A stretch of 64,000 nt of DNA, taken from the NCBI GenBank assembly GCA_016214555.1, contig JACROF010000012.1, positions 138,926 to 202,925 of the forward strand, in the 5' to 3' direction. The position numbers were made by a program. Of this stretch, positions 36,101-45,100 are shown one piece after another. Each line of letters opens with the position of its first letter. Positions within the stretch are counted from its first letter, which is position 1. This DNA comes from Candidatus Levyibacteriota bacterium (GTDB taxonomy: Bacteria; Patescibacteriota; Microgenomatia; Levybacterales; UBA12049).

Positions 36101-39100
36101 AGTTCCTGTTTATGGGGATGGATTGAATGTTCGAGATTGGATACATGCCGTTGATCATGGAAAGGCTTTGGATTTGCTTTTACATAAGGGGAATGTTGGT
36201 GAAGTTTACAATATTGGCTCTGATAACGAGCGAAGTAACATTGAAGTTACAAAAATGATACTTTCCATCATGGGGTTTGGTGAGGAAAGAATTGAGTATA
36301 TTCAGGATCGTCCTGGGCATGATCGAAGATATGCGATTGATGCTACAAAAATTATGAGTCTTGGTTGGAAGCCTGACTACCCCAGAGAGAGATTCGAAAA
36401 TGGTTTGCGGGAGACAATAGAGTGGTATAAAAGCAATACAGAATGGGTGGAGCATATTTGGAATAGAAAGAAAGATGAAATGAACACATTTCAGGAAAAT
36501 CTTGAAAGATCTCAAACACAACAAAAATCTGCAACTGAATAATACTTCATGAAAAATACATTTGCTCTCTACTCATTGAAAGCTATTGATTCTCCAAATT
36601 TTACCATGAGTCCGATCGAGCTTAAGGACTATATTCCATTTGAAGTAAAACGGGTATATTTTATTTCTAAGTCAAAAATAGGAACCTCAGGTGAGCATTG
36701 CCATTTTATAGAAGAAGAATTATTCGTTCTCGTTCAAGGGTCGGCAACTATAATTATTGATAAAGGACAAGGAAAAGAGGAGATTGCTATGATAGGTCCT
36801 ACGAGTGCGTGCTATGTCCCAAACTATGTCTGGCATGGGTTTAGAGATATCTCTCCAGATGCCATAATACTAGCTTTATCTTCAACAAATTATAGTCCTG
36901 ATAGAAGTGATTATCTTGAAAACTATGATGATTATCTAAAAATCCGTGATCAAAAACTTCAGACAACTTCAGCATGATTCAAGAAAATATTATTGGCGTA
37001 GGAATTTCTGGTCTCGTGGGATCTCGTGTAAAAGAACTTTTGACTCAATATTCATGGATTGGTTTGAGTCGGGAAAATGGTTTTGATATTCAAATTCCAG
37101 ACTCAGTGAGTTTCTCTCAGTACAATCAGGCGTCTTGGGTAGTCTTATTTGCTGCGAAGGCAGATGTTGATGCTTGTGAGCTTGATCGGGAGCATGGTAA
37201 AGATGGAGAGGCTTGGAAAATTAATGTAGAAGGTGCAAGAACAGTGGTAAATGCTTGTAGAAGAGATGGGAAGAAGCTTATTTACATCTCGACTGATTTT
37301 GTATTTAGTGGGGATGATACACCAGAAAATGGATACGATGAGGACGATATTCCAAGTCCAATTAATTGGTACGGACATACAAAATTTGAAGCAGAAAAAA
37401 TTATCCAAGAGTCAGGCATTGACCATATAATTGTTAGGCCAGCTTATCCATACCGTGCAAAATTTGATTCTAAAAAGGATTTTTTCCGGGCAATTTTAGG
37501 CAGACTTCAAAACAATCAGCCGATAAAGGCAATTACTGATCATGTATATAACCCTACTTTTATAGATGATATTGCTGACGCAATTGGTATCTTACTAAAA
37601 GAAGATAAGAGGGGAATTTTTCATGTAGTTGGCAGTCAGTCGCTTTCTCCATATGAATCAGCACTTGAGATAGCAAGAGTTTTTAACTGCGATGCTAATT
37701 TAATCGATAAAATAACAAGACAAGAATACTTTGAAGGAAAAGCAAATAGGCCCTACAATCTCCATATGAATAATGATAAAATAACAAAATTAGGGGTTAC
37801 GATGCGTTCTTTTACGCAGGGGCTTGAAGAGATTAAAAAACAACTATGACAATTACATTTGTAGGACATGGATATGTGGGTTTGGTAACAGCTGCTGTAT
37901 TTGCAGATTTGGGAAATAAAGTATGGGTTATCGGACACACTCCATCAAAAATCGAAAATCTCAAGAAAGGAATCATTCCGATCTATGAACCAGGCCTTGA
38001 AGAGCTTGTTAAGAGAAATGTTGATGCAGGCAGACTTCATTTCACCCTTGATTACACTCAATCAATTCCGGAGTCAGAAGTAATATTTATCGCAGTTGGA
38101 ACTCCGCCAAAAGAGAATGGCGAGGCTGATCTCTCGGTTGTCTATCAGGTCGCTGAAGAAATAGGAAAGCATCTGGGTGATTATAGTGTTGTCATAACAA
38201 AAAGCACAGTTCCAGTTGGAACAAATCGTGAAGTTGCTTCAATTATTGAGAAAGTTAAATCAAAAAATTCTCAGTTTGACATAGCATCAGTTCCAGAATT
38301 TCTTCGAGAAGGACAAGCAATTGGTGATACTCAAAATCCTGACAGAGTTGTTATCGGAACTGATTCCGAAAAAGCAGAGGAGCTTTTAGTAAGACTGCAT
38401 GAGCCTCTCAGCGGAGAAAGAGTTTTAACTACGGTTGAGACTGCAGAAATGATTAAGTATGCAGCAAATGCATTTTTGGCTACAAAAATTTCATTTGCAA
38501 ATGCAATTGCCCAGTTGTCAGAGACTCTTAAGGCAGATGGTCCTCAAGTTCTTGAGGCAATAGGCTTTGATAAGAGAATCGGCAAAGCGTTTCTTTATGC
38601 TGGTGTTGGTTATGGAGGAAGCTGTTTTCCAAAAGACGTAAAGGCTCTTATTGCTATTGCTAAAAATAACAACTATGATTTTGCGCTTCTTCGTGAAGTT
38701 GAAGCAATTAATAAAACTGCCATGACAAGAATCGTCGATAAGGCAAATGCTATGCTTGGCTCTCTTCAGGGAAAGACTATTGCTGTTTTGGGTCTTGCGT
38801 TTAAGCCAGATACAGACGATATGAGAGATGCCCCATCGAGGACAATAATTCCTAAGCTTGTTGACCAAGGTGCGAGTATTAGAGCATATGATCCTGTTTC
38901 TATGGAGAATGCGAAAGGATTGATGAGTGAAGTGAATAATCTTGTTTTTTGTGAATCAGCACTAGAAGCAGTTGAAGGCGCAGATTTGCTTTTGTTGTTA
39001 ACAGAGTGGAATGAATTTAAAGAGATGGATCTTGCAGCGGTGAAAGAAAAGATGAGTAATCACAACATTCTTGATGGGAGAAATATCTTCGATCTTCAAC

Positions 39101-42100: not shown

Positions 42101-45100
42101 ATGAAAATTGTTGTTATCTCACCCACATATAATGAAAAAGAAAATATCCAAAAACTCATTCCTCATTTAGAAAATGAAATTTTCCCACAGATTAAAAATC
42201 ATGATATGTGGCTTCTTGTTGCCGATGATAAATCTCCAGATGGAACTGCAGAGGTGGTGAGGGATTATATGAAAAAGTACAAAAAATTAGAATTACTTAT
42301 GGGTAATAAAGAAGGGTTGGGAGCCGCTTATGCGCGTGCAATGCAGTATGCGATGAAAGAAATGCATGCGGGGGCAATTGTTGAATTCGATGCAGACTTT
42401 CAACATGACCCAAAAGGAATTATCGATCTTGTTAATGCTATGGAGGAGGGATATGACTACGTTATAGGAAGTAGGTATATTCCAGGCGGACAGATCCCAA
42501 AAGAATGGGGGATTCATAGGAAGTTGATGAGTTTTTTTGGAAGCCTTTTTGCTAGAGTTGTTTTACTCACTTTTGATATTCACGATATGACCTCAGGTTT
42601 TAAACTTACCAAGACTGAATTTCTTGAAAAAGTTGATTTAGACCATTTGCTATCAAAATATTATGCCTATAAGATTCAAATTTTATTTGAAGTTGTAAAG
42701 CTAAAAGCGAAAGTTAAAGAAGTTCCCATTATTTTTTATGAAAGAAAAGCAGGATCAAGTAAAATTAGTCAAAAAGATTTGTTTGATTCATTTTATGTTG
42801 TTGTAATGCTACGACTAAGGGAGTCGAAAAATTTCGTAAAGTTTTTAGTAGTAGGTGGGGTTGGATTCCTCATAAATGCAATTACGCTCGCAATGCTTGT
42901 TGAAAATTTTCATTGGCATCCTGCGCAGGCAAATTTAGTCGGTGCTGCATTAGCTATTTTTTCAAATTTTAATTTCAACAACATTTGGACTTTCAAGGAA
43001 CATAAGTCAGATTCAATTTTTTCTTATTTCATAAAATTAATTCAATTTTATGCAACTTCTTCTTTCGGAGTTATTTTTATTCAGACTGGAACAATATTTT
43101 TGGGAACTCATTTGATCGGAAAGGATTATTATTTGATTTACTTTCTTGTAGGGACATTCTTTCTTCTTATCTGGAATTTCACGATTTATAACAAAATTAT
43201 CTGGAGAAAAAAATAATTTATCTATCTGGTTATGGAACAAAAAATAAAAAGTTTTTTTTCATCGCCTCATAACATTCTTCTATCATGCATTGTTTTGCTT
43301 GCGGCATCTTTAAGGCTTTACAAAATTTCCGATTACATGACATTTTTAGGAGATGAAGGAAGAGATGTTCTAATCGTAAAGCATATTTTGGAAGGAAATT
43401 TTACTCTTCTTGGACCGCGATCATCTGCAGCTGATTTTTTTTATGGTCCAATTTATTATTACCTCATAACGCCATTTTTGTGGCTTTTTAAGTTAGATCC
43501 TGTTGGTCCTGCAGTGTTTATTGCTATTATCGGAATTCTAACTGTTTATCTAGTATATATCGTTGGAAAAGAATGGATTGGTATAAGAGGTGGACTTATC
43601 GCTGCAGCACTTTATGCAATTTCTCCGGTTGTGTTAGTATATTCAAGATCATCTTGGAATCCTAATCCTCTTCCGTTTGTTTCTCTTTTTGCATTATATC
43701 TTCTATATAAAGGAATAGAAAAAAACAAAAAACGTTATTTTCTTTTTACTGGAATACTGCTTGGTTTGGGAATACAAATGCAATATTTAGCATTGTTTTT
43801 AGGAGCAATAGTTGCAATCTCATTGGGTATTACAATATTTTTGAATAAAGAAAATTTGTTATTTGAAAGTATAAAAAAATATGGAGTAATTTTTTGTGGG
43901 TTCATTATTGGTTGGTCGCCTTTTTTAGTATTCGAAATTCTTCATAGATTTCCGAATCTGCAAACAATGACAAATTTCCTTTTGGGAAAGTATGGTTCTC
44001 CGACTCCAACAACGACAACCTTTTTTGGACAAATGCATGAAATTTTTCTTAAGCTTTTTGGGAGGCTTGTGACGAGATTTCCCGATATTCATCCAAACCA
44101 AGCTGTTGAAAAAGATTATTTAATCGTTTGGTATGTACTTACAATTATCTTAGGGATTGCTTCTGTAATATGTATTTCAAAGATTAAAAATAAAACAGCA
44201 AAAATTATTTTATTTACCTGGGTTATTGCAGGCGTAGCCTTTTTCGGTTTTTATAAAAAAAGTCTTTATGATTATTATCTCGGGTTTATGTTCCCTTTGC
44301 CTTTTCTTCTTGTAGGTAATCTGTTTCAAAATTTTATAAAAAAGCGTTCACTATTAACATATTTTGCATTAGCAATGTTAGTATTTCTTTTCGTTTTTAA
44401 CCTTTTAGGTTTGCCTTTTAGGTCCCAACCCAATAAGCAAAAAGATCAAGTTAAGCAAATTGCTCAATTTGTGATCAGCAAAACAGACAATAAGCCATTT
44501 AATTTTGCTCTCATTACTCCGGGAAATTCTGATCATGGTTATCGGTATTACATGGAGGTGCTAGGGCATAAGCCTGTTGAGATCCAGAATCAGTTCACTG
44601 ACCCCGATCGTAAATCAGTAACAGACCAACTTTTAGTTGTTTGTGAGGATACAACTTGTGGCCCCCTTGGTCACTCACTTTTTGAGGTCGCAGCATTTGG
44701 GAGAGGGGAGATTGTAGGTGAGTGGGATACTTCGGTTGTTAAAGTGTTTCGATTAATTCATTATGTTGATCCGAATGTTGCAAAAAAGAATACGGATTAA
44801 TTTTAATGAAACTTCCTTTGTTTTCGACTAAGACAATTTCAAAGATGAGATCTCTTGGACTTTCCGAGTCGCAAGTTATTGATGTTTTTAATAACGGAAT
44901 TTATGTTACAGAGGCAACAGGTAATAAAACAGCTATCAAAAAGATTGGAAGTTGTGAAATAGGGTGTCAATATGACCTGAATATGAGAACTGGACAGTAT
45001 TTGATTACTGATGTATGGAAAAAGAGTATATAACAAAAGTTGCAATTGGATCAAAGAATGCAATTAAAATTGCATGTGTTAAAGAAGCTTTTGAAAAAGT

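Follow-up and report, generated by a model that had tools for sequence, protein, structure and literature searches.

Which sugar is handled by the two predicted membrane glycosyltransferases, a GT2 and a GT-C enzyme, that close a row of nucleotide-sugar genes in a Candidatus Levyibacteriota genome? The locus lies in a stretch of 64,000 nucleotides (nt; hereafter the window) covering positions 138,926-202,925 of contig JACROF010000012.1, forward strand, and a preliminary description had read six genes at 37846-44800 as an Arn-like route by which UDP-xylose, or a UDP-4-keto-pentose, serves to load a pentose onto polyprenol phosphate, which is then flipped and passed to an acceptor outside the membrane. 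All six open reading frames (ORFs) were found there on the plus strand, each with the domains claimed for it, and comparisons with Pfam, NCBIfam and PDB bore out the gene identities and the order ugd-rmd-gmd-uxs-GT2-GT-C, in which the GDP-sugar branch does sit between ugd and uxs. The general logic of that description, a lipid-phosphate sugar synthase coupled to a GT-C enzyme, is sound, but the donor it assigned is less likely than one of the GDP-mannose type. Our preferred reading, to which we give a probability of about 0.5, is that GT2 and GT-C are an extracytoplasmic pair of the Ppm1/Pmt or GtrB/GtrC kind, encoded where a nucleotide-sugar operon ends and using polyprenyl-phosphate mannose or D-rhamnose.

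The GT2 protein (42101-43216, plus strand) resembles a type-III dolichol-phosphate mannose synthase (DPMS), with the Pfam domains Glycos_transf_2 and GtrA_DPMS_TM laid out as a GT-A catalytic domain, interface helices and a four-helix GtrA-like membrane domain, and we classify it as a DPMS-like polyprenyl-phosphate glycosyltransferase. By sequence it matched the Pyrococcus furiosus enzyme PfDPMS (5mlz) over residues 1-354 with an E-value of 2.4e-43, whereas structures of GtrB and ArnC were matched over the first ~120-130 residues only, at about 1e-6 to 1e-7 (the PDB ArnC match covered residues 2-121 at 1e-6). An AlphaFold 2 (AF2) model of the protein (pLDDT 87.9) searched with Foldseek gave the same ranking, with PfDPMS as first match (E 1.8e-22, 32% identity, 376 columns) and ArnC (2.6e-12) and GtrB (1.2e-11) behind it at 16-19% identity (17-19% for ArnC), such that the ArnC and GtrB matches were weaker than that to PfDPMS by 10 to 36 orders of magnitude. 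The NCBIfam ArnC model (PRK10714 / NF007986) scored 35.8 bits against a cut-off of 529, so the ArnC-like label given to this protein does not hold. Nor is it a novel gene fusion to a GtrA flippase, as had been proposed: the membrane domain (GtrA_DPMS_TM, E 1.5e-15; four long helices at 224-367 in the AF2 model) is native to the type-III layout, and the Pfam family bears its name because the GtrA-like part is the type-III DPMS membrane domain. Orthologues are annotated as dolichol-phosphate mannosyltransferase by the Joint Genome Institute (JGI).

We next compared substrate contacts, taking residue roles from Gandini et al. 2017 (PMC5526996) and reading the GT2 equivalents off its sequence alignment to PfDPMS. 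In PfDPMS, guanine is contacted by D39, G68 and L69, the metal and diphosphate by D91, Q93, R202 and K208, mannose O2, O3, O4 and O6 by D89, H94, K178 and R117, and the acceptor phosphate by S135, R117 and R131 (PMC5526996). The guanine contacts correspond to D43, G72 and L73 in GT2, and all of the metal/diphosphate, mannose and acceptor-phosphate residues were kept, as were Y10 and E12 of the ribose loop and A-loop partner; the gate residue F177 is a Tyr. The GT2 motif DADFQHDP aligns with 89-DADLQH-94, and GT2 sided with DPMS against the UDP-glucose enzyme GtrB at three places (DADxQH versus DADLQD, GL versus GK, DDxSPD versus NDGSKD). Across 83 Levybacteria orthologues, both Asp of the DxD motif and the equivalents of R117, R131, S135, R202, K208, D39 and GL were invariant. 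In the membrane domain, the equivalents of N248 and N277, which hold flipped Dol-P-Man in a 2026 PfDPMS structure (PMC12992685), were likewise kept, and those of R341 and F338 lay outside the aligned region. GT2 thus shows the type-III DPMS features that we looked for (DADxQH, substrate contacts and GtrA-like domain) at 32% identity to PfDPMS, compared with the at least 40% of the class that Gandini et al. 2026 found in archaea only under a strict motif definition (PMC12992685), and from these features a donor of the GDP-mannose type would be expected.

The GT-C protein (43232-44800, plus strand; 522 amino acids, aa) has an ArnT-like architecture, a polytopic membrane domain followed by a C-terminal soluble α/β domain of ~120 residues, and matched Pfam PMT_2 with 60 bits (cut-off 26). 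An NCBI protein from a metagenome-assembled Candidatus Levybacteria genome is 100% identical to it. Neither a MIR domain nor a PF02366 (PMT) match was found in the window copy, PMT_2 standing alone, and some orthologues carry a precomputed PF02366 match. Assigning it to ArnT, PMT or the oligosaccharyltransferases (OSTs) by sequence failed, with no solved GT-C relative in PDB at E<=1, ArnT and PMTs included. Its AF2 model (pLDDT 85, pTM 0.86) is unambiguously of the GT-C fold, and searching it with Foldseek revealed GT-C enzymes in the 40 best matches and in 41 of the 50 listed, among them AglB, STT3, ArnT, ALG12/9/3, Pmt4, PglB, AftB, AftA, AftD and Emb. ArnT (5f15) had the best TM-score among the matches listed (0.62/0.60; root-mean-square deviation, rmsd, 6.3 Å; E 2e-7), AglB was matched at E 6e-8, and alignments to Pmt1/2/4 mostly spanned ~255-265 columns. 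Because identities at the fold level were 13-15%, we make no family call (GT39, GT83 or other); of the earlier label "GT39 (ArnT/PMT-like)", the GT-C fold and the nearness to ArnT by TM-score stand, while GT39 amounts to a generic PMT_2 label. An alignment of 31 orthologues (50-78% identity) contained two invariant loops, D41-E42-G43-R44-D45 directly after the first transmembrane segment (helix 12-29) and S140-S141-W142-N143-P144-N145. The D41-E42 pair, which supplies the Asp-Glu loop expected in the preliminary description, lies in the first extracytoplasmic loop, where GT-Cs of the PMT and ArnT types have their catalytic acidic motif. The sequence has no WWD or WYD motif and, with only ~120 aa at its C-terminus, no large C-terminal domain of the OST kind, and we take the protein to be a monosaccharide-transferase-like GT-C enzyme. 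Distant relatives of GT-C and GT2 in other gene neighbourhoods were sought by protein searches and a genome scan, which gave nothing beyond the closest orthologues, those of the Levybacteria type.

To assess how firmly these two genes are held together, we collected 86 loci (six contexts by exact-protein look-up and 80 from GTDB species representatives), mapped ten window proteins onto them by tblastn, and based our counts on the 72 loci that were non-redundant and extended at least 6.8 kb beyond the 5' end of GT-C. GT2 adjoined GT-C in 72/72 loci. Upstream, gmd was present in 70/72, ugd in 69/72, rmd in 68/72 and uxs in 65/72, and the exact order ugd-rmd-gmd-uxs-GT2-GT-C recurred in 55/72, so the arrangement is not chance. 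Among the other arrangements, two loci lacked rmd and five had a divergent gmd on the opposite strand. Six of the 72 had ugd-rmd-gmd-GT2-GT-C without room for uxs and one had ugd-rmd-GT2; these seven uxs-less loci did not share one GT2 subtype but fell into different ones, a distribution that suggests uxs was lost several times independently. Active-site subtypes of GT2 (YK versus FQ; Q, S or F at 93) showed no pattern with uxs or rmd presence. The neighbourhood of the array was conserved as well (TsaE/Sua5, a CAP-domain protein, DUF4446/DUF3048 and SecDF), and the array appears to have been passed on vertically as a core feature of the lineage.

The block drawn in the preliminary description is indeed co-directional over its six genes, but its 5' side is too short: the plus-strand array has ten genes and runs from 34747 to 44800, starting with rmlA, rmlB, an FdtA-like cupin gene and rmlD, and a 214-nt gap follows its end. 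Spacings from rmlA through to ugd range from -4 to +6 nt, and we infer that 34747-44800 is co-transcribed as an operon; promoter and terminator scans inside the array gave no signal above shuffled expectation, and no tRNA or Rfam elements were found in the window. The array thus holds three nucleotide-sugar branches (dTDP, UDP and GDP), yet only one GT2 and one GT-C, and therefore adjacency alone cannot nominate xylose as the sugar of the pair.

Under our preferred reading, the first eight genes would supply a dTDP-6-deoxyhexose, UDP-GlcA and UDP-xylose, and GDP-D-rhamnose. At the cytoplasmic face, GT2 would load polyprenyl phosphate with a sugar taken from a donor of the GDP-mannose type, either GDP-mannose or GDP-D-rhamnose, its 6-deoxy derivative that differs only at C6 and would come from two upstream genes. 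The GtrA-like four-helix domain may then help the product to cross the membrane, a role that is still put forward as a hypothesis even for PfDPMS, and the adjacent GT-C, through its loop-1 Asp-Glu, would move the single sugar to an acceptor outside. The most plausible candidate acceptors are a wall glycopolymer or surface proteins rich in Ser/Thr. The monoderm bacteria of the Candidate Phyla Radiation (CPR) are not known to make lipid A, and for that reason a protein or wall polymer is the more likely acceptor. UDP-xylose, UDP-GlcA and the dTDP sugar would go to cytoplasmic glycosyltransferases encoded elsewhere.

Several observations weigh against this reading. The sugar pocket varies among the 83 orthologues: the mannose O4/O6 contact K178 is Gln in 62/83 (the window copy being of the Lys type), Q93 is Ser or Phe in 28/83 and H94 is Phe in 6/83, and therefore the pocket is not uniformly PfDPMS-like across the Levybacteria family. 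Donor specificity is also not readable from sequence, given that the first Asp of DxD, R117 and D39 are conserved in the UDP-using GtrB and ArnC. Within the ten-gene array there is no other glycosyltransferase for the remaining sugars. As for gene order, uxs lies immediately upstream of GT2, with a 3-nt gap in the window and a 4-nt overlap in loci L001 and L004-L006, and in locus L016 (1-11688) a uxs-GT2-GT-C trio stands alone: the genes before it encode IF-2, PNPase and a protein resembling a sigma factor, the preceding 7.7 kb contain neither ugd nor rmd nor gmd, and no other rearrangement ties uxs to the pair. The uxs-less genomes may carry uxs elsewhere, and because all 86 loci come from one lineage, the conserved order is partly inheritance.

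A further possibility, which we hold tentatively and consider somewhat doubtful, is that GT2 loads D-rhamnose (from GDP-D-rhamnose) or xylose (from UDP-xylose) and not mannose, and that GT-C adds it to surface proteins or wall. If this were true, either product would be new among the lipid-linked monosaccharide donors so far described, and the enzyme making it would be a bacterial example of an architecture that recent work assigns to archaea alone.

The pentose route of the preliminary description, in which xylose or a 4-keto-pentose from Ugd and UXS is loaded by GT2, flipped by the GtrA-like domain and used by GT-C to xylosylate a surface acceptor, is in essence an Arn-like pathway without the amino and formyl steps, and we consider it unlikely. 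UXS (41144-42097, plus strand) is a predicted UDP-glucuronate decarboxylase (EC 4.1.1.35; predicted product UDP-xylose) that matched human UXS1 (4gll/2b69) at E 3.5e-95 and with 322 bits over its full length (152/305 identical, ~50%), against at most 143 bits for the next-best class and 70 bits for the decarboxylating ArnA C-domain, and it is, as had been supposed, a decarboxylase and not a 4-epimerase. Its motifs GGAGFIGSH, STSEAYGDP, YDEAKR and GRQTRS align column for column with those of UXS1 and include the NAD motif (GGAGFIGSH) and catalytic motifs (STSE, YDEAK, QTR) of the extended short-chain dehydrogenases/reductases (SDRs). The model for the 4-keto-pentose synthase U4kpxs (PRK11908) scored 86 bits against a cut-off of 294, and these comparisons suggest a genuine UDP-xylose-forming enzyme and not one of the ArnA/U4kpxs type that releases a 4-keto-pentose. 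Since the decarboxylase is of the UXS type, we judge the 4-keto-pentose alternative unlikely in its turn.

A true UXS directly 5' of GT2, at the spacings given above, does favour xylose, as do the isolated trio of L016, the closeness of GT-C to ArnT by TM-score, and the Gln that replaces K178 in most orthologues and could reflect a sugar without C6. The lack of amino and formyl steps also agrees with what the window contains: scanning its ORFs for aminotransferase (DegT), formyltransferase and deacetylase families returned none across the 64 kb, as the preliminary description had noted for the first two. A canonical Arn pathway was likewise considered and rejected, there being no ArnB, ArnA formyltransferase, ArnD or ArnE/F in the 64 kb, and GT2 failing the ArnC model. 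Against xylose, GT2 is a DPMS homologue that resembles the GDP-mannose enzyme far more than it does ArnC or GtrB, with DADxQH, GL and the mannose contacts kept in the window copy; uxs is missing from 7/72 loci that retain ugd-rmd-gmd-GT2-GT-C or ugd-rmd-GT2-GT-C, across several GT2 subtypes; and the dTDP genes, a further source of sugars, had been overlooked. We know of no established polyprenyl-phosphate-xylose donor in any organism, which also counts against this route, and our literature search found neither a lipid-linked xylose donor nor a described glycosylation system for CPR or Levybacteria. The lipid-linked pentoses that are known are furanoses made from phosphoribosyl pyrophosphate (PRPP) by a UbiA-type synthase and not from a UDP-pentose and a GT2 (PMC11127046).

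It is also improbable, in our estimation, that GT2 uses some other UDP- or dTDP-sugar (UDP-GlcA, UDP-Glc, UDP-GlcNAc or the dTDP-6-deoxyhexose), in which case the pair would act like GtrB/GtrC, CsbB/YfhO or RgtE/RgtA-D to decorate a wall polymer. The retention of ugd in 69/72 loci, uxs-less ones included, would fit such a donor, and GT2 has NCBIfam matches to the hexose and HexNAc lipid-phosphate synthases AglJ (54 bits), PgfS (50) and PpgS (37), yet these are weak and fall far under cut-offs of 325-500 bits, and the likeness to GtrB and ArnC is confined to the N-terminal region noted above. PfDPMS itself is somewhat promiscuous toward GDP-Glc, but its activity with UDP-Glc is marginal (PMC5526996). 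Finally, a decoupled GT-C, acting as an oligosaccharyltransferase, ligase or polymerase on a pyrophosphate-linked glycan while GT2 supplies polyprenyl-P-mannose to other enzymes, would suit the top Foldseek E-values (AglB/STT3) and the several sugars made by the array, as a heteroglycan would need, but is very improbable given that GT2 adjoins GT-C at every locus counted, that the WWD motif and large OST C-terminal domain are lacking, that TM-scores to OSTs are 0.49-0.57 with rmsd 11-14 Å against 0.62 for ArnT, and that 522 aa with a small C-terminal domain fits ArnT-type monosaccharide transferases.

Turning to the genes that would provide the sugars, Ugd (37846-39144, plus strand) is a UDP-glucose 6-dehydrogenase, which would yield UDP-GlcA, with three UDPG_MGDP_dh domains, a TIGR03026 score of 462 bits (cut-off 190) and E-values of 5e-120 and 4e-116 to solved UDP-glucose dehydrogenases. 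Rmd (39141-40094, plus strand) is a predicted GDP-4-keto-6-deoxy-D-mannose reductase, forming GDP-D-rhamnose, whose top match over the full length was the GDP-6-deoxy-D-lyxo-4-hexulose reductase 2pk3 (E 1.2e-78), followed by 6x3b (E 4.5e-51). Gmd (40109-41092, plus strand) is a GDP-mannose 4,6-dehydratase by the TIGR01472 equivalog (431.7 bits, cut-off 415) and Pfam GDP_Man_Dehyd (E 6e-132), and because it consumes GDP-mannose, a pool of GDP-mannose must exist in the cell. These calls agree with the ugd, gmd and rmd-like genes of the preliminary description. The usual plus-strand gmd copies in relatives are 71-94% identical to the window Gmd (85-94% in the closest loci), whereas the gmd slot in L011, L064, L069, L083 and L086 (~6.5-6.8 kb) holds a minus-strand copy only ~50% identical to it, which looks like replacement by a different gmd lineage.

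The dTDP branch opens the array with an rmlA-like glucose-1-phosphate thymidylyltransferase (34747-35484, plus strand; short form of 245 aa; Pfam NTP_transferase E 4e-62), for which TIGR01207 was the best match at 285 bits, under the equivalog cut-off. It is followed on the same strand by rmlB, a dTDP-glucose 4,6-dehydratase (35484-36542; TIGR01181 434 bits, cut-off 365), by an FdtA/WxcM-type cupin (36549-36977; Pfam FdtA E 7e-26), and by an RmlD-like dTDP-4-keto-6-deoxyhexose reductase (36974-37849; Pfam RmlD_sub_bind E 7.5e-51) that reached 165 bits with TIGR01214, under its 224-bit cut-off, and had RmlD 3sc6 as top PDB match (E 9e-27). The cupin is a predicted dTDP-4-keto-6-deoxyhexose 3,4-ketoisomerase whose closest solved relative is A. 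thermoaerophilus FdtA (2pa7, E 4e-18, HxH pair aligned), and it occupies a slot held by RmlC in most relatives, as in L001, L002 and L006 (PF00908). Because no aminotransferase lies near this FdtA-like cupin, the product of the dTDP branch may differ from L-rhamnose. Most Levybacteria relatives have either the classical RmlC (PF00908) or a NUDIX gene in the slot, and the FdtA variant (loci L007, L023, L027 and L079) goes with a distinct rmlB subtype, at 79-92% identity versus 44-54% elsewhere; this co-occurrence suggests that the two were exchanged as a cassette.

Individual loci showed further variation. In L048 (7384-9889), the only locus in which the pair is not directly adjacent, ~2.7 kb separates GT2 from GT-C and contains two small ORFs and a minus-strand FAD-dependent oxidoreductase of the DAO family. 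The region right behind GT-C in L018 (11628-17318) encodes a Ugd-like dehydrogenase of divergent sequence, an SDR with 43% identity to UXS, a GT2 of 408 aa, an aminotransferase of the DegT family and a GH18 protein; this gene content recalls an Arn-like scheme for an amino-pentose or amino-uronate more closely than any part of the window does. Many GTDB records with the locus (L007, L009, L010, L012 and others) are titled "uncultured Gammaproteobacteria bacterium", and single ones Limnocylindrales, Eisenbacteria or Saccharimonadales; these titles look like submitter placeholders or mislabels and not taxonomic spread.

Upstream of the array, two genes 5' of rmlA, lies a CAP/YkwD-domain protein (33546-34487) whose linker, QAPVQSQPISLGQSPSPVPTRPITPTPTPVVSLTPN, is rich in Pro/Thr/Ser and whose C-terminal part has a membrane segment, and between it and the sugar genes is an 84-aa two-helix membrane protein (34487-34741); both are syntenic in L002, L005 and L006. 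By analogy with the segments modified by actinobacterial Pmt, which its linker resembles, the CAP protein could be proposed, as speculation, as a candidate O-glycosylation target. Beside TsaE and Sua5, which are fused in L006 (337 aa), a 104-aa ORF (33184-33498) corresponds to the N-terminal part of TsaD/TsaB only (PF00814 positions 25-84 of 264), and because a gene of 104-106 aa is also present in L002, L005 and L006, its short length is that of a conserved mini-protein and does not come from a truncated assembly. Farther away, a DUF2079 predicted polytopic membrane protein (62567-63982, E 2.6e-36) may be an envelope glycosyltransferase-like protein, and a NodU/CmcH-type carbamoyltransferase (15553-17283) and a LytR_C-domain protein (18572-19669) could have a part in modifying the envelope, though nothing evident connects them with the array. 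The rest of the window is housekeeping, with LepA, GroEL, MurJ, SerRS, SecA, RF, FtsEX, TsaE/Sua5, SecDF, an ABC-2 transporter, a CCA-adding enzyme, RecJ, an AspRS/AsnRS-type enzyme and GluRS among its genes.

CPR bacteria (Patescibacteria) are uncultured, very small episymbionts whose surface chemistry is almost unknown. A ten-gene sugar operon whose order is the same in at least 55 of 72 species-level Levybacteria genomes probably has a central place in the envelope, and possibly in host attachment, and GT2 with GT-C offers a defined module of two proteins that could be cloned. In this one bacterial lineage it is common to find the complete type-III DPMS architecture, including a GtrA-like domain with a putative self-flipping role, and a bacterial GT2 at 32% identity to PfDPMS, set against a class stated to be archaeal only, is of small but real interest. 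We regard the locus as a system of an ordinary kind in an unstudied lineage, for which no new mechanism is required.

Comparison with known systems places the pair among several that share parts of its design. In Haloferax volcanii, AglD/AglR/AglS offer a similar theme, in which a Dol-P-mannose synthase and a GT-C-like transferase that depends on Dol-P-Man add the terminal sugar to a surface glycoprotein on the outside of the cell, but they are archaeal, have a separate flippase candidate and lie in an N-glycosylation island. The Haloferax low-salt pathway was considered as a precedent for lipid-P-rhamnose and set aside, since rhamnose there goes onto a DolP-trisaccharide and not onto a monosaccharide carrier. 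Bacterial Pmt (Rv1002c) is ~500 aa long and without MIR domains, like the Levybacteria GT-C. The actinobacterial Ppm1/Pmt system, which we propose as a likeness, is of the monoderm type and uses a GDP-mannose-dependent polyprenyl-phosphate mannose synthase to feed a GT-C outside the membrane (PMC3485146); the Levybacteria GT-C differs in matching PMT_2 and not PF02366 and in its lack of similarity to solved PMTs at E<=1, and the GT2 in having a GtrA-type domain and a gene adjacent to its partner inside a nucleotide-sugar operon. With ArnC/ArnT, which serve the modification of lipid A by way of undecaprenyl-phosphate 4-amino-4-deoxy-L-arabinose (Und-P-L-Ara4N), the locus shares the logic of a GT2 plus a GT-C of similar size, Ugd plus a UDP-GlcA decarboxylase, and a TM-score to ArnT of 0.62/0.60, yet it differs in the Arn enzymes that the window lacks, in a GT2 that is not ArnC-like and in a decarboxylase of the UXS type.

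The three-component systems GtrA/GtrB/GtrC, CsbB/GtcA/YfhO and, for a pentofuranose, PPPRS/MATE/GT136 (PMC11127046) likewise make a lipid-monophosphate sugar inside the cell, flip it and let a GT-C transfer the single sugar on the outer side, whereas in Levybacteria one polypeptide contains both the synthase and the flippase-like module. That arrangement is the one seen in PfDPMS (5mlz; PMC5526996, PMC12992685), with which GT2 shares the same full-length architecture at 32% identity, the substrate contacts, the A-loop Arg and Lys, and N248/N277; the Levybacteria protein differs in being bacterial (CPR), in having Tyr at the place of F177, and in that it would use polyprenyl and not dolichyl phosphate.

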